A stretch of DNA of 64,000 bases from Tagaea sp. (GCA_044378015.1 JBILXZ010000001.1:145-64144), one strand, 5' to 3'; numbered from the stretch's first letter, positions 3,629 through 50,471 are shown. The notes: generated by a model not told the origin, from the letters alone. Made by a program: numbers and translations.

Positions 3629-4600
3629 CTATTCGGCTGCAGCCGATTGATGGCCCGCTTGCGCGTGGGCGAGGAATTTTTCGGCCTCGAGCGCGGCCAT
3701 GCAGCCCATGCCCGCCGCCGTCACGGCCTGGCGGAACACTTTGTCCTTCACGTCGCCCGCCGCGTAGACGCCGGGCAAGTCGGTCGCCGTCGAATCGGGC
3801 TTTGTCAGGATGTAGCCCTCCGCGTCGAGGGCGATCTGGCCCTTGAAAAGTTCGGTCGCCGGCACGTGGCCGATCGCGACGAACAGACCGTCGACCGCAA
3901 GCGTGCTGCGTTCGCCCGTGACGAGATTCTTGAGCGCCAAGCCCGTCACTGCCGCAGGCGTGCCGGTGCCGAGCACCTCGTCGACGGCCGAATTCCAAAC
4001 GACCTCGATTTTGGGGTGCTTGAGCAGGCGGGCCTGCAGCATCTTTTCGGCGCGCAGCGCGTCGCGGCGATGGATCAGCGTGACCTTGGCGGCGTGGTTG
4101 GTGAGATAGAGCGCTTCTTCGACCGCCGTGTTGCCGCCGCCGACCACGGCCACGTTCTTGCCGCGGAAGAAAAAACCGTCGCAGGTGGCGCACGCCGAAA
4201 CGCCCGCGCCGCGGAATCTGGTTTCCGATTCGAGCCCGAGCCAGCGGGCTTGCGCGCCCGTGCAGATCACGATCGTGTCGGCGATGTAGGTGTCGCCCGA
4301 ATCGCCGGTCGCGACGTAGGGGCGTTTGGAGAGATCGACTTCGACGACGATGTCTTCGAGGATCAGCGTGCCGACATGGGCGCACTGCTTGTACATCTGC
4401 TCCATCAGCCACGGCCCTTGGATCGCCGTCTCGAAACCCGGATAGTTTTCGACGTCGGTCGTGATCGACAATTGGCCGCCGGGTTGGATGCCGCGGACGA
4501 GGATGGGGGAAAGATTGGCGCGCGTCGCGTAAATGGCCGCCGTATAGCCCGCAGGCCCCGAACCAAGGATCAGCATTTTGGTGCGATGGGTTTGCGGCAT
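3629..4600 (-). CDS. trxB: thioredoxin-disulfide reductase
   Basis: KMLILGSGPAGYTAAIYATRANL FAD motif, CATC redox centre (SACATCDGFFF), NADPH motif VAVVGGGNTAVEEAL; start chosen at the internal Met (MPQTHRTKM...) preceded by GGAAAGG, not at the track Met at 4639. Confidence 0.9.
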   Translation of the reverse strand: MPQTHRTKMLILGSGPAGYTAAIYATRANLSPILVRGIQPGGQLSITTDVENYPGFETAIQGPWLMEQMYKQCAHVGTLILEDIVVEVDLSKRPYVATGDSGDTYIADTIVICTGAQARWLGLESETRFRGAGVSACATCDGFFFRGKNVAVVGGGNTAVEEALYLTNHAAKVTLIHRRDALRAEKMLQARLLKHPKIEVVWNSAVDEVLGTGTPAAVTGLALKNLVTGERSTLAVDGLFVAIGHVPATELFKGQIALDAEGYILTKPDSTATDLPGVYAAGDVKDKVFRQAVTAAGMGCMAALEAEKFLAHAQAGHQSAAAE

Positions 4601-12702: not shown

Positions 12703-13253
12703 CGCAGCATGCGCTCGGCGGCCGGACTGTCCCACGCGGCCGCCCCTTCGAGACGGCCGCGCTCGAACCCGTCCGGGTCGATTACCATCGTGGTCGGCAG
12801 ACCTCGCACCGCGAAAGCGCGCATCGACGCCCCCGAAGGATCGAGATAGACGGGAAGATTGGCAAGCGTGTTGGCCGCGAAAAACGGGGCGACTTGGCGC
12901 ATGCCGCCGCGATCGACCGATATCGCCAGCACGGCAACGCCGAGATTGCCCATCCGCGCCTGCAGCCGGTCGAGCGACGGCATCTCTTCCACGCACGGCG
13001 CGCACCATGTCGCCCAGTAGTTCAGCACGACGACGCGGCCGCGAAAGTCGCCGAGCCCCAGCGTGCGCCCCTCGGCATCCTGGAACGCGATTTCCGGCGT
13101 GCGCACCGGTTCGGGGTGCGGCTTGAACGGCCCGAGCTTGCCCGCGAAGCCGGACGCTTGGGCGAAAACACTTGATCCCTGGCCGCCAAGCGCTAGGGTC
13201 GCGCCCGCCGCCAGGGCCAGCACCGTCCGCCGGTTGGTGTTCGCGCTTTGCAT
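12675..13253 (-). CDS. TlpA-family periplasmic thiol:disulfide oxidoreductase (Tat/Sec signal)
   Basis: NRRTVLALAAGATLALGG signal peptide and thioredoxin-fold motif VVVLNYWATWCAPCVEEMP; start taken at MQSANTNRR to avoid overlapping the divergent argH. Confidence 0.8.
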   Translation of the reverse strand: MQSANTNRRTVLALAAGATLALGGQGSSVFAQASGFAGKLGPFKPHPEPVRTPEIAFQDAEGRTLGLGDFRGRVVVLNYWATWCAPCVEEMPSLDRLQARMGNLGVAVLAISVDRGGMRQVAPFFAANTLANLPVYLDPSGASMRAFAVRGLPTTMVIDPDGFERGRLEGAAAWDSPAAERMLRQYLSKNTI

Positions 13254-28171: not shown

Positions 28172-29899
28172 TTAGCTCTCGCGGCTGCCGGGGACCACGG
28201 TCAGGGCCGGGCGGCCGACGTCGAGGCCGATTTTGTCGAGGTCGAGATCGGCGAGCCACGGGCGCTCGACGCTCGGCGTGCCGAACAGATAACCCTGCAG
28301 GAGCTTCACGCCCTTGCGCGCGAGATGCTGGGCTTCCTGCGCGCTCTCCACGCACTCGGCCACCGTCTCGAGCCCGAAGCCGTCGGCGAGGCCCAGCAGC
28401 GTGCGGATGAAAAGCTGGTTGTCGACGTTGTTCGCCACGCCGCGCACGAAGCTGCCGTCGATCTTGACGCTGTCCACCGCGATCGCTTTGAGGTTGCGGA
28501 AGCTCGTGTAGCCCGCGCCGAAATCGTCGAGCGACACGCGGCACCCGAGTTCGCGCACCTGAGCCACGAACTTGGCCGTCTCGTCGATGTCCTGGATCGC
28601 CACCGTTTCGGTTATCTCGACCGTCAGGCGCTTGGCAAGATCGGGGCGCGTCTTGAGGGTGCCCGAGAGCGCCCGCAGCCACGAAGGATCGCCCGCCGTG
28701 AGGCCCGAGATGTTGATGGCAAGCCGCACGTCCGGCCAGCGCATGAGTTCGCCCATCGCCATTTCGAGCACGCGCCGATCGAGCAGCCGCATGAGGCCGG
28801 TCTGCTCGACGACCGGAATGAACGAGCCCGCGGGCGCTATCGTGCCGTCCATGCGCTGCAGCCGGATCAGACATTCGTAATGGTCCACGACGTAGGTCGT
28901 GGCGTCGACGATCGGCTGGAAGGCGAAGATCAGGCGCTCGTCCTTGAGGGCGGCCTGCACGTCCGAGGAAATCGCCACGAGGCGCTGATGCAGCTCGCGT
29001 TGCGCGGGGCTTGCCGAGAATATCGCGTAGCGATTGCGCCCGGCGCGCTTGGCCTCGTGCAGCGCGGATTCCGCGCGCGCCATCACCTCGACCGCCGAAG
29101 GACCTTGCTCGAGGAACAGCACCGCACCGGCGGACGCCGTCACGTGCAGCGGCCCGTCCGGCGTTTCGATGGGGGCACTGCGCACGGCCGTGAGCAGCCG
29201 GTCGGCGGCAAGGCCGATCTCGGATTCGGGGCACTGGGCGAGGACGAGGCCGAAACGGTCGCCGCCCGCGCGCCCGATCGTGTCGGAAGCGCGCAGGCTG
29301 CGCTCGAGGCGCTGGCCGATGCCGACCAGAAGCGCGTCGGCAGTCGACCAGCCGAACGCGTCGTTGATCGCCGAGAGATTGTCGACGCCGATCAGCAGGA
29401 ACGCGCCGGGCGCCTTGTAGCGAACCGCGTACTCGATCGCGTGGTCGAGCGATTCGCGCAGCCTCGAGGCGTTGAAATGCCCGGTCAGCGGATCGTAGTT
29501 GGCGAGATACTCCAGACGCGCTTCCTTTTCCTTGCGCGTCGTGATCGCGCGCAGCGTGCCGACGAGGCGCAAGGGTTTGCCGTCTTCGGCGAAGGTCGCG
29601 CGCCCGCGGTCGTGCACCCAGATCAGGTTGCCGCCGTCGCCGCGGATGCGGTAGTCGAGATCGTAGGCGATGCGGTCGACGAAATGGGCGGACAGCGCCT
29701 TGAGGCGCTGCGGCAGGTCTTCGGCGTAGACGCGGCTCTGGAATATCTGGCCCGAGTCCGGAAAATCGGCGCGGCCGCCGAACACGTTTTCCGCGCGGCC
29801 GTGCCAGGCGATCGTGTCGGCCGCGAGGTCCCACGCGTAGGCGGCATCGCCCGCCGCGTCGAGCGCGGATGCCGCAAAATCGCGAGTCGCGCCCGTCAT
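28172..29899 (-). CDS. PAS-GGDEF(degenerate)-EAL c-di-GMP phosphodiesterase-type signalling protein
   Basis: PAS region; GGDEF domain whose signature is degenerate (RAGGDRFGL); EAL domain with catalytic residues (ECLIRL, EITE, DDFGAGYTSF, KIDGSFV); start ATG 29899 overlaps the aminotransferase stop by 1 nt (TGATG). Confidence 0.85.
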   Translation of the reverse strand: MTGATRDFAASALDAAGDAAYAWDLAADTIAWHGRAENVFGGRADFPDSGQIFQSRVYAEDLPQRLKALSAHFVDRIAYDLDYRIRGDGGNLIWVHDRGRATFAEDGKPLRLVGTLRAITTRKEKEARLEYLANYDPLTGHFNASRLRESLDHAIEYAVRYKAPGAFLLIGVDNLSAINDAFGWSTADALLVGIGQRLERSLRASDTIGRAGGDRFGLVLAQCPESEIGLAADRLLTAVRSAPIETPDGPLHVTASAGAVLFLEQGPSAVEVMARAESALHEAKRAGRNRYAIFSASPAQRELHQRLVAISSDVQAALKDERLIFAFQPIVDATTYVVDHYECLIRLQRMDGTIAPAGSFIPVVEQTGLMRLLDRRVLEMAMGELMRWPDVRLAINISGLTAGDPSWLRALSGTLKTRPDLAKRLTVEITETVAIQDIDETAKFVAQVRELGCRVSLDDFGAGYTSFRNLKAIAVDSVKIDGSFVRGVANNVDNQLFIRTLLGLADGFGLETVAECVESAQEAQHLARKGVKLLQGYLFGTPSVERPWLADLDLDKIGLDVGRPALTVVPGSRES

Positions 29900-31230
29900 C
29901 ACGCGACCCGACGCAAGGCAGCCGACAGCATCTCGGCCATCCGGTCGATCTGCGGCTTTTCGACGATCAGCGGCGGCGACAGGGCGACGATGTCGCCCGT
30001 CGTGCGGATCAGCAGACCCGCTTCGAAACAGTCGACGAGCACGTCGTAGGCCCTGGTGCCGGGGGCTCCGGCACGCGGCTCGAGCTCGATGCCCGCCACC
30101 AAACCCAGATTGCGGATGTCGACGACGTGGCGCGTGCCTTTGAGGGCGTGCATCGTCGCCTCCCAATAGGGGGCGAGGTCGGCTGCGCGCGCGAACAGGC
30201 CTTCGTCGCGATAGACGTCGAGGGTCGCGATGCCGGCGGCGCAGGCGAGCGGATGGCCCGAGTAGGTGTAGCCGTGGAAAAACTCGATGGTGTTTTCAGG
30301 CCCCTGCATGAACGCGTCGTAGATCGCCTTGGTCGCGAACACGGCCCCCATCGGCACGGCGGCGTTGGTGATGCCTTTGGCGACCGTCATGAGGTCCGGC
30401 ATCACGGCGAAGCGTTCGGCCGCAAAGGCCGTGCCGAGGCGCCCGAAGCCCGTGATGACTTCGTCGAAGATCAAGAGAATGCCGTGCTTGCTGCAGATCG
30501 CGCGCAGCTTTTCGAGATAGCCTTTGGGCGGTATCAATACCCCGGTCGAGCCCGCGACCGGCTCGACGATCACGGCCGCGACGTTCGACGGATCGTGCAG
30601 GGCGAGGATGGCTTCGAGCCGGTCGGCGAGCTCCGCACCGTGTTCGGGCTGGCCCTTCGAATAGGCGTTGCGCACCGGGTCGTGCGTGTGCGGCAGATGG
30701 TCGACATAGGGCAATTGCAGCCCGAACTGCTTGCGGTTGGGCGAAATGCCGCCCACAGAGATGCCGCCGAACCCCACGCCGTGATAGCCGCGCTCGCGGC
30801 CGATGAAGCGCACGCGCTGGGATTCGCCGCGCGCGCGATGGTAGGCGAGGGCGATCTTGAGCGCGGTATCGACCGACTCGGAGCCCGAATTCGTGAAGAA
30901 AACCTGGTTGAGATCGCCCGGCAGCATCGCCTGCAGACGCGCCGCGAACTCGAACGACAGCGGATGGCCCATCTGGAAGCCGGGGGCGAAATCCATCGTT
31001 GCGGCCTGCTTTTGGATCGCTTCGACGATGGATTTGCGGCCGTGGCCCGCATTCACGCACCACAGGCCGGCCGTGCCGTCCAAAATCTGGCGATTGTCCG
31101 GCGTGTAGTAGTACATCCCTTCCGCGCGCGAAAGCAGTCGCGGTTTGCGCTTGAATTGCCGGTTGGCCGTGAACGGCATCCAAAGCGCTTCGAGGTTGTT
31201 GGGATCGACCGGCATAGAAGCGGCTGGCAT
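29899..31230 (-). CDS. class III (omega-amino acid/beta-alanine--pyruvate type) PLP aminotransferase
   Basis: PLP-lysine region (DEVITGFGRLG), YTYSGHP motif, length about 443 aa; start at MPAASMPV with AGGAG 10 nt upstream. Confidence 0.85.
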   Translation of the reverse strand: MPAASMPVDPNNLEALWMPFTANRQFKRKPRLLSRAEGMYYYTPDNRQILDGTAGLWCVNAGHGRKSIVEAIQKQAATMDFAPGFQMGHPLSFEFAARLQAMLPGDLNQVFFTNSGSESVDTALKIALAYHRARGESQRVRFIGRERGYHGVGFGGISVGGISPNRKQFGLQLPYVDHLPHTHDPVRNAYSKGQPEHGAELADRLEAILALHDPSNVAAVIVEPVAGSTGVLIPPKGYLEKLRAICSKHGILLIFDEVITGFGRLGTAFAAERFAVMPDLMTVAKGITNAAVPMGAVFATKAIYDAFMQGPENTIEFFHGYTYSGHPLACAAGIATLDVYRDEGLFARAADLAPYWEATMHALKGTRHVVDIRNLGLVAGIELEPRAGAPGTRAYDVLVDCFEAGLLIRTTGDIVALSPPLIVEKPQIDRMAEMLSAALRRVA

Positions 31231-31284
31231 CGCGCGTACTCTCCTGAAATAGCCAACGGATTGCCCCAACCCTAAATCCGACCA

Positions 31285-31440
31285 CGTTCTAATGTAACTG
31301 CTAAATCTCAAGAGTGATTGATCTTTCTATATAATAAGCTTTTATAATAATTTTAAGATAATTGAATATTTCTCTTGATTTCGATTTGTATCTAATTTTA
31401 AAATAATTTTATGGTCGCTGCTCCTAATATTATTCTGCTG
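31285..31440. promoter_or_regulatory. sharply AT-rich island (about 25% GC) in the divergent promoter region
   Basis: Sequence 31285-31440 is dominated by TAAT/TTTTAA/AATAATTTT runs in an otherwise 65-70% GC window. Confidence 0.6.
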
Positions 31441-31791
31441 CCGCCGCCCAGTGCCCGCCAAAGCGACGGGCCGCGCGTCGATGATTCGAGCCAGCGCCGC
31501 AAAACTGCACCTAACAACGACAATAATGCCGGTTTCACCGATGGTTTTGCCGCCTCAACCGCCCGTGCCGAGACCGCCTCGCCGCGCCAAAGGGCGCGGA
31601 CGCGGAGTTTCGCCGACGAATTGGTCGGCGAAAGCGGGCGCGCCTCGGGGGCCTTGACCTTCGCGACCCAGCGCATTGCCCAAGAGCGGCTGCGCAGCGG
31701 CGCGTACGTCGAAAACTGGCGCCAAGCGACCGCCGCCTATGCCCAGACCGCGCGCAACGCCGAGCAAAATTTGGGCGGCGTGCGCGCCTAG
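31411..31791 (+). CDS. small hypothetical protein (126 aa, predicted disordered); may be spurious
   Basis: ORF begins inside the AT-rich island; low-complexity Ala/Arg/Gln-rich product; no recognisable domain. Confidence 0.3.
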   Translation: MVAAPNIILLPPPSARQSDGPRVDDSSQRRKTAPNNDNNAGFTDGFAASTARAETASPRQRARTRSFADELVGESGRASGALTFATQRIAQERLRSGAYVENWRQATAAYAQTARNAEQNLGGVRA

Positions 31792-31846: not shown

Positions 31847-33367
31847 ATGGCGTTTGCGACGATGTGGGAGCTTCTGCGGAACGGAGCCGACGGCAGCCCG
31901 GCTTTGGGCGCGCCCGAAACGGCGGCGTTGACCTTCAAGGATCTGCGCGCGCTTGCGGCAGACACGGTTGCCGCGCTCAACCGCATGGGCATCGGCCGCA
32001 ACGACCGGGTCGCGATCGTGCTGCCCAACGGGCCGGAAATGGCTGCGGCCTTTCTTTGCGTCGCCGCCGGGGCGACGACGGCCCCCTTGAACCCCGCCTA
32101 CCGGCAGGAGGAGTTCGAGTTCTACATCGCCGACCTCAAATCCAAAGCCGTGATCGTGCAGACGGGCGACGACACGCCCGCGCGCGCCGCCGCCGCCAAG
32201 CTCGGCGTGCCGCTGATCGAGTTGGCGCCGCAGCGCGATCTCGGTGCGGGCGCCTACAAGCTTTCCTCGAACCTCGCCGGCGCGGCCGCCGCACCGGGCT
32301 TTGCGGCCGCCGACGACGTGGCCCTCATTCTGCACACGTCGGGCACCACCTCGCGGCCGAAGATCGTGCCGCTGTCGCAGGCGAACATTTGCGCCTCGGC
32401 CCGGCATATCGGCGCCACGCTCGAGCTCAAGGGCCACGACCGCTGCCTCAACATCATGCCGCTGTTCCACATCCACGGGCTCATCGCGGCCGTGCTGTCG
32501 TCCTTGGCGGCCGGCGGCCAGACCGTGTGCACGCCGGGCTTCAACGCGCTCAAATTCTTCGCGTGGCTCGACGAGGCGGGACCCAGCTGGTACACGGCCG
32601 TGCCGACCATGCACCAGGCGATCCTCGCGCGCGCCGAGCGCAACAAGGAGAGCCTCGCAAAATCGAAGCTGCGCTTCATCCGCTCGTCTTCGGCCTCGCT
32701 GCCGCCGCAGGTGATGCAAGCCCTCGAAGACACGTTCGGCTGCCCCGTCGTCGAAAGCTACGGCATGACGGAAGCCGCCCACCAGATGGCCTCGAACCCG
32801 CTGCCGCCGCGCGCGCGCTTCGCGGGCTCGGTCGGCATCGCGGCGGGGCCCGAGGTGCGCGTGATGGACGAGGAAGGCAATCTCCTCGGCCCCAACACGC
32901 TCGGCGAAATCGTGATCCGAGGCCCCAACGTGACCAAGGGCTACGAAGCCAACCCCGACGCCAATCTCAAAGGCTTTGCGAATGGCTGGTTCCGCACCGG
33001 CGACCAGGGCACGCTCGACGACCAAGGCTATCTGCGCATCACCGGCCGCTTGAAGGAACTGATCAATCGCGGCGGCGAAAAAGTGAGCCCGCTCGAGGTC
33101 GATGAAGTGGTGATGGACCATCCGGCCGTGCAGCAGGTCGTGACGTTCGCGATCCCGCACGACAAGCTCGGCGAAGAGGTGGGGGCCGCCATCGTGCTGC
33201 GCGAAGGCCAGAGCGCGACCGAACGCGACATCCGCGACTTCGCCGCCAAGCGCCTCGCCGACTTCAAAGTGCCGCGCAAGGTCGTGTTCCTTGCCGAGAT
33301 CCCGAAGGGGGCGACCGGCAAGCTGCAGCGCATCGGCTTGGCAGAGAAGCTGGGGTTGGGCAAATGA
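31847..33367 (+). CDS. acyl-CoA synthetase of the AAE3/Pcs60 (oxalate--CoA ligase-like) family
   Basis: AMP-binding motifs LHTSGTTSRPKIV, MPLFHIHGL, YGMTEA, GWFRTGD, GGEKVSP closely follow Arabidopsis AAE3 / yeast Pcs60; AAAGGA SD 9 nt upstream. Confidence 0.8.
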   Translation: MAFATMWELLRNGADGSPALGAPETAALTFKDLRALAADTVAALNRMGIGRNDRVAIVLPNGPEMAAAFLCVAAGATTAPLNPAYRQEEFEFYIADLKSKAVIVQTGDDTPARAAAAKLGVPLIELAPQRDLGAGAYKLSSNLAGAAAAPGFAAADDVALILHTSGTTSRPKIVPLSQANICASARHIGATLELKGHDRCLNIMPLFHIHGLIAAVLSSLAAGGQTVCTPGFNALKFFAWLDEAGPSWYTAVPTMHQAILARAERNKESLAKSKLRFIRSSSASLPPQVMQALEDTFGCPVVESYGMTEAAHQMASNPLPPRARFAGSVGIAAGPEVRVMDEEGNLLGPNTLGEIVIRGPNVTKGYEANPDANLKGFANGWFRTGDQGTLDDQGYLRITGRLKELINRGGEKVSPLEVDEVVMDHPAVQQVVTFAIPHDKLGEEVGAAIVLREGQSATERDIRDFAAKRLADFKVPRKVVFLAEIPKGATGKLQRIGLAEKLGLGK

Positions 33368-34344
33368 GCCGCGTTCTGATTTTCGGCGCCGGGGCCATCG
33401 GCGGCTACATGGGCGTGATGATGGCGAAGGCAGGCGCCCGCGTGACGTTCTTCGCGCGCGGCGCGCACCTTGCGGCCATGAAGGAAAACGGCATCAAGCT
33501 GATTTCCGAGGGCGCCGAAACCGTGATCTGCGACGCGGTCTTCACCGACGATCCGGTCGAGGCGGGCCCGCAGGATTTCGTCGTGGTCGCCCTCAAGGCG
33601 CACGGGCTTGTTGCGGCAGCACCGCAGATCGCCAAGCTTCTCGCACCCGAAACCGCCATCGTCACGGCGATGAACGGCGTGCCCTACTGGTATTTCTACA
33701 AACATGGCGGCCCGCACGACGGGGCACGCCTCAAATCCGTCGATCCGGACGGCAAATTGTGGGACACGCTCGCCCCCGAACGCGCCATCGGCTGCATCGT
33801 CTACCCTGCCGCCAATATTCTTGCCCCCGGCGTCATCGAACACACCTACTCCAACCGCTTCGCGCTGGGCGAACCCGACGGCGCCAAATCGGCGCGCGCG
33901 GCCAAGCTCGGCGAGATCATGATCGCGGGCGGCCTCAAAGCGCCCGTGCGCCCGAAGATCCGCGACGACATGTGGGTGAAGCTGTGGGGCAATCTCAGCT
34001 TCAACCCAGTGTCGGCGCTGACGGGCGCGACCCTCGACGTGATCACGGGCGATCCCGAAACGCGCAGCGTGGCGCGCGCGATGATGCTGGAAGCGCAGGA
34101 AGTCGGCGAAGCGCTCGGCATCCGCTTCGGCATCGACGTCGAAAAGCGCATCGACGGTGCCGGCGAAGTGGGGGCGCACAAAACCTCGATGCTGCAGGAT
34201 CTCGAAGCCAAAAAGCCGATGGAAATCGACGCGCTTCTGGGGGCCGTCGTCGAGATGGGCGAACTCACGGGCCACGCCATGCCGATCTGCCGCACGGTGC
34301 TGGGCCTCGTGCGCCAGCGCGCGCGCGTGGCCGGCGTCTACTAG
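33364..34344 (+). CDS. PanE/ApbA-family 2-dehydropantoate 2-reductase homolog (candidate oxalyl-CoA reductase, PanE2-like)
   Basis: N-terminal Rossmann motif VLIFGAGAIGGYMG; ApbA C-terminal domain; ATG overlaps the ligase stop (ATGA). Confidence 0.75.
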   Translation: MSRVLIFGAGAIGGYMGVMMAKAGARVTFFARGAHLAAMKENGIKLISEGAETVICDAVFTDDPVEAGPQDFVVVALKAHGLVAAAPQIAKLLAPETAIVTAMNGVPYWYFYKHGGPHDGARLKSVDPDGKLWDTLAPERAIGCIVYPAANILAPGVIEHTYSNRFALGEPDGAKSARAAKLGEIMIAGGLKAPVRPKIRDDMWVKLWGNLSFNPVSALTGATLDVITGDPETRSVARAMMLEAQEVGEALGIRFGIDVEKRIDGAGEVGAHKTSMLQDLEAKKPMEIDALLGAVVEMGELTGHAMPICRTVLGLVRQRARVAGVY

Positions 34345-50358: not shown

Positions 50359-50471
50359 GCTCAAAAGGCAGCGCTTGGACGAGCGGATCGTCTTGGAAAA
50401 TTCGGGGCGACTGCCGACGGCCCCGCGTGGGGGTCTTCATACGCGCGCGCGCGCGCGAACGCAAGTCGCAC

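Follow-up and report, generated by a model that had tools for sequence, protein, structure and literature searches.

Why should a chromosome of about 67% GC carry, between two divergent genes, a stretch of DNA that is three-quarters A and T? We asked this of a locus in Tagaea sp., using a 64,000-nt window (the whole stretch of DNA that was analysed, 66.6% GC overall) in which a sequence-only reading had pointed to an AT-rich island of about 150 nt and roughly 25% GC, at 31285–31440. That description held, as the 156 nt are 25.0% GC. The explanation that we favour, with a probability of roughly 60% and on the basis of sequence comparison, is that the island is a sigma-70-type promoter and control region of the small-protein gene that begins at 31411, and that it would give this gene a leaderless mRNA.

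Composition and setting of the island

The maximal AT-scoring segment spans 31317–31412 (96 nt, 15% GC) and is the only one of its kind in the 64 kb, the next best being 30 nt long. The lowest 100-nt window, at 31313, has 16% GC, and the remaining stretches below 45% at this window size reach down to 42–44%, while in 150- and 200-nt windows the island is the sole stretch under 45% GC. The remaining intergenic dips in the window are 35–43% GC over 60 nt, and equally AT-rich promoter regions, which would have made the island unremarkable, are not common within the 64 kb. Assembly or sequencing error is excluded, since 281 nt (31200–31480) are the same in 11 independent metagenome contigs, separately assembled from ENA, JGI and Logan samples, with the exception of one coding-region base in one contig. 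In the window's clade the island reaches about 25 nt into the small ORF, where codons 5–8 are AT-rich (CCT AAT ATT ATT; 31425–31434 in the window); Tagaea-type orthologues use GC-rich synonyms at these codons.

The island lies in a 180-nt intergenic space (31231–31410) between divergent genes, and Pfam and NCBIfam scans together with public gene calls agreed with the divergent promoter region and flanking genes first described. On the minus strand is a class III omega-aminotransferase gene (29899–31230; it matches the NCBIfam AptA equivalog with 757 bits, the cut-off being 500) with its own Shine-Dalgarno sequence, AGGAGA, at 31240–31245. A gene for a 575-aa PAS-GGDEF-EAL protein (28172–29899, minus strand) overlaps the aminotransferase stop by 1 nt and is for this reason read as its operon partner. 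On the plus strand, the small ORF encodes a conserved protein of 126 aa (31411–31791, ATG at 31411) and is followed by an acyl-CoA ligase family gene (31847–33367) with the Shine-Dalgarno sequence GAAAGGA, by a 2-dehydropantoate-2-reductase-like (PanE-like) gene (33364–34344) and, further 3′ on the same strand, by a DUF1289 gene and then a phytase-like gene. A scan of the plus strand between 31100 and 31900 found no terminator-like site, and the small ORF is probably the first gene of an operon running into the acyl-CoA ligase and PanE-like genes. GC3 is 0.74 in the small ORF and 0.85–0.89 in the neighbouring genes. The AptA-type omega-aminotransferase and the PanE-like 2-dehydropantoate reductase flank the island on opposite sides with the acyl-CoA ligase between, and a beta-alanine, pantothenate or CoA theme is possible for the flanking genes (28172–31230 on the minus strand, 33364–34344 on the plus strand).

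Taken alone, the compositional contrast would be what one expects of a scar or junction left by horizontally acquired DNA or a mobile element, or of an assembly artefact, and a horizontal-acquisition junction was among the suggestions made from the sequence. We find this barely credible. Besides the agreement of the 11 assemblies, the island keeps the same place and the same neighbours in 20 lineages, its flanks are of normal GC, it has no flanking repeats, there is no tRNA gene in the 64-kb window, and its conserved core is single copy in the window by nhmmer, which taken together rules out a horizontal-acquisition junction. The lack of a tRNA gene in the window also led us to reject a tRNA-associated integration site, and a replication origin or terminus was rejected because the 4-kb GC-skew profile has no switch at the island.

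Conservation of the core across Rhodospirillales

Scanning genome and metagenome collections with the small-protein alignment gave 18 further distinct loci, to which one more (L031) was added via a profile match. The 18 loci belong to Rhodospirillales MAGs labelled Telmatospirillum, 'Tagaea', Rhodospirillaceae and others; our alignment, A3, contains 19 distinct upstream regions, and there are 20 loci when L031 is counted. Comparison with orthologous loci had been proposed as a check on the island, and in all the relatives that we compared the island occupies the same site, the lowest-GC 100 nt starting roughly 80–105 nt upstream of the small ORF in every locus. Although the small proteins are only about 42–90% identical across the 20 lineages, a 73-nt core (31338–31410, plus strand) can still be aligned. 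Of its 73 columns, 28 are invariant in the 19 aligned loci, 7 vary freely within A/T and 38 accept G or C somewhere. Mean information is above 1.1 bit per column in the core versus below 0.6 upstream, and the onset of conservation is abrupt, at about 31338–31345, from where it runs to the ATG; left of the core the sequences are barely alignable between clades (16–55% identity). The GC content of the core is 14–30% in each locus despite a neighbour GC3 of 0.85–0.89 (4-fold sites), indicating that low GC is actively maintained. Pairwise identity is 0.59–0.82 in the core versus 0.63–0.80 at 4-fold sites, a comparison that does not discriminate on its own because both are compositionally constrained, and the argument for selection rests instead on the invariant columns and the maintained low GC. 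From these alignments we conclude that strong purifying selection acts in a sequence-specific manner on the 73 bp preceding the ATG, over a family-level span of Rhodospirillales.

The sequence-only reading expected the island to control both flanking operons, and the comparison separates the two. The most distant loci, L029 and L030, lack the aminotransferase and have the PAS-GGDEF-EAL gene as divergent neighbour, which is thus conserved in this position even without the aminotransferase; the core remains at an unchanged distance from the small ORF, and its persistence there indicates that the element belongs to the small ORF. One could still suppose a bidirectional control region whose main conserved role is the divergent aminotransferase/PAS-GGDEF-EAL operon, as a divergent gene is present at all loci and several have, by hand inspection, -35- and -10-like minus-strand hexamers in and around the upstream of two 14-nt boxes discussed below (box 1), for example TTCAAT-17-TAAATT in L013 and TTGCAT-17-TAAATT in L017. 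These hexamers are not conserved across clades, however, the best in the window being TTCAAT-16-TAAAAG, and the promoter scan finds no minus-strand promoter in the window's island. Moreover, the core keeps its distance to the small-ORF ATG and not to the divergent gene, which varies in both identity and distance. We consider a main role in the divergent operon decidedly improbable, and of the dual control first suggested, the conserved plus-strand core can be assigned to the small ORF while control of the minus-strand operon is possible. The promoter of that operon would probably lie in the left part of the island (31285–31345), which is less conserved and differs between lineages.

Two further features were seen on the divergent side of these loci. 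L029 and L030 share a perfect palindrome, AATGTTT-G-AAACATT, about 85–100 nt upstream of the small-ORF ATG and between the core and the PAS-GGDEF-EAL gene, which is probably the operator of a different regulator in that clade. In L021, tandem 18-nt units (GGACTGGGATG..GAC) are found at the 5′ end of the aminotransferase gene (about 3790–3840), where they lengthen the N-terminus in this MAG.

Base-specific conservation also bears on whether the island is a nucleation or binding site for an AT-reading nucleoid silencer of the MucR/Ros or H-NS-like type, the chief suggestion made from the sequence, maybe one relieved by c-di-GMP from the adjacent PAS-GGDEF-EAL protein. The island is like MucR/Ros and H-NS-type targets in being a short, very AT-rich tract that covers a promoter, contains numerous TpA steps and lies in an alphaproteobacterial genome of high GC; its 96-nt segment is 85% AT and has 15 TpA steps. 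The Ros box, which we take to be TATATTTCAATTTTATTGTAATATA, fits the pattern of the 14-nt boxes, AATTTTA-N3-TAAT. MucR recognizes AT-rich cores of 5 bp that include a TpA step (PMC5693944) and its affinity increases with AT content (PMC9410896), and c-di-GMP is reported to relieve MucR bridging (PMC12560781), which makes the adjacent GGDEF-EAL gene, a conserved divergent neighbour encoding a c-di-GMP enzyme, suggestive. A silencer would also be compatible with a promoter, as an added layer. We nevertheless think it unlikely. Silencer targets are typically AT-rich acquired genes recognized by their composition, whereas the genes beside this island are core genes with a normal GC content (GC3 0.74–0.89, with synteny in 20 lineages), and a protein reading composition or shape does not explain why 28 columns keep their A-versus-T identity and just 7 vary freely in A/T. 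In addition, tblastn found no MucR/Ros homologue in the 64-kb window or the fetched loci.

Several named sites were considered as the source of the conservation and rejected. IHF had been put forward as a binding protein, but there is no match to its site, WATCAANNNNTTR, within 31231–31440 even with one mismatch allowed. The CtrA box TTAA-N7-TTAA has two one-mismatch matches in the island, which is about chance for DNA that is 85% AT, and neither is conserved in Tagaea-type or L029-type loci. FNR/FixK-type half-sites around the -35 region (TTGAT-N4-ATTTG) were dismissed by hand, as the right half is never ATCAA at any locus. A DnaA-box-like sequence, TTAATCCAC, occurs in Tagaea-type loci and is absent from the window's clade, and the same is true of GANTC (CcrM-type) methylation sites at the -35 region, which are confined to Tagaea-type loci. 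In L016–L022 one or two such sites, GATTC and sometimes GAATC, bracket the -35 TTG at about -45 to -30 from the ATG.

Geometry of the probable promoter and the start of the small gene

A generic consensus promoter scan picks the pair TTGATT-18-TAAAAT in the window. The -35-like hexamer, TTGATT (31375–31380, plus strand), keeps its TTG in all 20 loci and has a C before it in 16, resembling the CTTGAC consensus reportedly described for alphaproteobacteria by MacLellan et al. in 2006. The -10-like hexamer, TAAAAT (31399–31404, plus strand), keeps TA in 20 of 20 loci and the T of position 6 in 16, this T being missing in the other 4. The TTG hexamer and the TA are separated by exactly 18 nt in 20 of 20 loci, and the spacer contains an invariant ATTT (31384–31387, alignment A3). 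An 18-nt spacer is longer than optimal, though the arrangement falls within the sigma-70-type pattern of TTGnnn and TAnnnT placed 16–19 bp apart. In the window the -10 hexamer ends 6 nt before the ATG, a distance found in 9 loci, with 8 nt in 6, 5 nt in 3 and 7 nt in 2, and the first T of TAnnn(T) is 11–14 nt before the ATG in all 20. The scan also picks the homologous pair, TTGACT-18-TACATT, in L030, the most distant locus tested; in L020 it reports nothing above threshold, and in L015 it favours TTGAAT-16-TATAAT, which ends 2 nt before the ATG. DNA this rich in A and T is full of -10-like hexamers and the register is not unique, so we regard the TTG-18-TA register as likely but not certain.

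The short distance from the -10 hexamer to the start codon leads directly to the manner in which the small ORF may be translated. All 20 loci begin the small ORF with ATG, and in the window the -10 hexamer itself holds an in-frame stop, TAA, which closes the upstream frame 12 nt before the ATG and makes 31411 the first possible start. In none of the 19 aligned loci do the 20 nt upstream show Shine-Dalgarno complementarity, the duplex energy with the anti-Shine-Dalgarno sequence being at least +0.4 kcal/mol; for the downstream ligase gene it is -5 to -11 kcal/mol in the 17 loci with a Shine-Dalgarno-placed start. The published computational signature of leaderless genes is a TANNNT with its first T some 12 nt upstream of the start codon (PMC3160421). 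Leaderless mRNAs are frequent in alphaproteobacteria, with 375 in Caulobacter (PMC4117421) and 171 in S. meliloti, every one of the latter AUG-initiated (PMC3616915). The small ORF combines a TAnnnT about 12 nt upstream with an AUG start and no Shine-Dalgarno sequence. In this it is like the mapped leaderless sigma-70-type promoters of Caulobacter crescentus, Sinorhizobium meliloti, Mycobacterium and Deinococcus, where TAnnnT lies 11–14 nt upstream of an AUG that lacks a Shine-Dalgarno sequence. Unlike those, the start here is predicted from sequence, about 73 contiguous bp are conserved (far beyond two hexamers), the spacer is 18 bp at every locus and the AT content is extreme for the genome.

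We propose that RNA polymerase with the housekeeping sigma factor would bind TTGATT and TAAAAT and would start transcription at the A of the ATG at 31411, or within 1–2 nt of it. A start at this A would make the mRNA leaderless, and we expect that its translation would not involve Shine-Dalgarno pairing. So high an AT content may ease promoter opening in a 67% GC chromosome, and the AT-rich DNA at about -45 to -95, which includes box 1, could be an UP-like contact for the alpha subunit, a regulator site, or both.

An unstructured leader could look much the same in several respects. If the AT block were transcribed from a promoter farther upstream, it would form an AU-rich 5′ leader that could act as an S1-type translational enhancer in place of a Shine-Dalgarno sequence. 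The lack of a Shine-Dalgarno sequence in 19 of 19 loci fits this, as does the RNA, which would be essentially unstructured: RNAalifold gives 0 conserved pairs and the single-sequence z-score is -0.73. Initiation without a Shine-Dalgarno sequence is common in alphaproteobacteria (PMC4117421), and a TAnnnT is also found within box 1 in most loci. However, inspection by hand revealed no conserved -35-like element at a workable distance upstream of box 1, for which reason we also rejected box 1 as a duplicated full promoter, and for a leader AU-richness alone would suffice, with no need for the invariant TTG-18-TA. Remote relatives of the small protein in a branch that we call 'MANPVAIY' also speak against a leader. 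Their genes have a conserved AT-rich upstream block, TTTTCTWAAAAWTTTAKATRTATTGTT, in contigs of 60–66% GC (about 1745–1790 in L033, 85–125 in L034 and 245–285 in L036), and this block is followed by a 35–45-nt leader of normal GC with the Shine-Dalgarno sequence GAAAGG or AAAGG, an arrangement that fits a promoter role of such blocks at the DNA level. We therefore see an AU-rich leader as an improbable account of the island, on a par with a nucleoid silencer.

A structured RNA was rejected on the folding results given above, and no Rfam family reaches its gathering score in the island, where matches at E values up to 10 are at chance level. With neither a conserved RNA structure nor a credible Rfam match, the conservation appears to act at the level of DNA. 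The sole Rfam match in the window is a chrB-b RNA motif (RF03086) at 50368–50425 on the minus strand, with 52.6 bits versus a gathering score of 36.5.

Elsewhere in the window, a tlpA-like gene for a thioredoxin-fold protein (start at 13253, minus strand) and argH (13273, plus strand) point away from each other, and only 19 nt separate their start codons. Both ATGs are preceded at 12–14 nt by a TAnnnT and, 17–19 nt further up, by a TTG, and their Shine-Dalgarno pairing is weak. The two genes are a candidate back-to-back leaderless pair whose promoters would lie inside each other's coding sequence, which hints that the organism may use leaderless starts more generally.

Twin boxes and the small-protein family

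Two hexamers do not account for everything that is conserved, since the invariant ATTT of the spacer and the dense conservation over 73 nt exceed what a sigma-70 promoter needs, so that part of the signal must be something else. The elements first noted as repeated in the island (TAAT, TTTTAA and AATAATTTT) resolve to two exact copies of AATTTTA-N3-TAAT. Box 1, AATTTTAAGATAAT, is at 31349–31362 (plus strand), with its centre at about -56 from the ATG, and is our proposed UP-like or operator site. Box 2, AATTTTAAAATAAT, is at 31394–31407 (plus strand), 45 nt downstream of box 1, and overlaps the -10 hexamer and the discriminator. The 45-nt spacing is the same at every locus having both exact copies. 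Even with 2 mismatches allowed, the 64-kb window has no further AATTTTA-N3-TAAT outside the island, and a weight matrix derived from both boxes found no additional site in the window. The flanks of the fetched loci likewise gave no further occurrence of the pattern, meaning no regulon signal in the window or in these flanks.

The occurrence of the same 14-nt box over the -10 region and start, and again 45 bp upstream, leads us to infer that one DNA-binding protein probably recognizes both and would act as a repressor at box 2. Over 20 nt the two boxes share about 68% of their positions, and their identity is 13.7/20 within genomes versus 13.4/20 between clades, so concerted evolution is not seen and a shared binding protein is only suggested. 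At 45 bp the boxes are about 4.3 helical turns apart, a distance that does not point to simple cooperative binding on one face of the DNA.

Upstream of the -35 hexamer, an UP element had been offered as one explanation of the AT-rich DNA, and this is compatible with our data although the consensus match is mediocre. Estrem et al. are said to have defined in 1998 a UP consensus, nnAAAWWTWTTTTnnAAAAnnn, that covers -38 to -59 and stimulates via the alpha-CTD. Counted by hand against this E. coli consensus, 31352–31373 (-59 to -38; about 82% A/T) agrees at 8 of the 15 specified positions. The island is like UP elements of the rrnB P1 type in having an A/T block directly upstream of the -35, at about -40 to -65, with AnTn tracts. 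It is unlike them in that its discrete 14-nt box recurs over the -10, which a UP element does not predict.

It is tempting to see the twin boxes as operators of an undescribed sequence-specific regulator, which might be the small basic protein, regulating its own gene, or a c-di-GMP-coupled factor connected with the divergent PAS-GGDEF-EAL gene. We put this forward tentatively, as something possible but not to be expected. If true, such a regulator would control a leaderless gene of a family without relatives in Pfam, NCBIfam or PDB, distant members of which lie directly downstream of phaR. The R. eutropha PhaR repeat, which is reportedly GCAMMAAWTMMD, does not fit and was rejected, and tblastn found no PhaR gene in the window.

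As for the small ORF, sequence conservation shows it to be a real gene. The 126-aa protein has 22 homologues, the lowest identity being 45%, among which the N-terminus MV..N..LLPPP and the C-terminal block RSFADELVGESG...F..QRIAQERL..G...E.W..A..AY show little or no variation. Searches of the small protein against Pfam, NCBIfam and PDB sequences gave no match. An AlphaFold2 model (pLDDT 53), in which the N-terminal half is disordered and the C-terminal part forms three helices, was of too low a confidence to warrant a fold search. A profile search added 48 remote small homologues with the common block ...FAAQQIAQE.L.PG.HFE..., and the wider family (31411–31791 in the window, and P0023–P0069) consists of proteins of 110–150 aa with the motif ...FAAQ(Q/R)IAQE.L..G.H.E....A.AAY..., again with no Pfam, NCBIfam or PDB relative. 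Two remote members are encoded directly downstream of phaR (PHB_acc_N/PHB_acc; 2368–3390 in L037 and 1–694 in L039), and neither of these has an AT island. In L037, phaR and the family member adjoin thiolase and alpha/beta-hydrolase genes. This suggests that distant relatives of the small protein may be linked to polyhydroxyalkanoate metabolism.

Our results do not overturn current understanding, as the island would belong to a known class, the leaderless sigma-70-type promoters, with an extreme composition, deep conservation and a duplicated box added to it; this makes it a good experimental target, though not a surprising one. They do show that, in an alphaproteobacterial genome of high GC, even a conspicuous local change in composition does not have to signal foreign DNA, the island being among the most strongly constrained non-coding stretches of its locus. 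We know of no transcription-start-site maps for Rhodospirillales, and the island provides a phylogenetically footprinted example of a probable leaderless promoter in this order; its core is a defined element of 73 bp that lends itself to experiment and carries two boxes as candidate operators. The island also draws attention to an unannotated small-protein family that is linked to the gene of a c-di-GMP enzyme here and to phaR in distant relatives.
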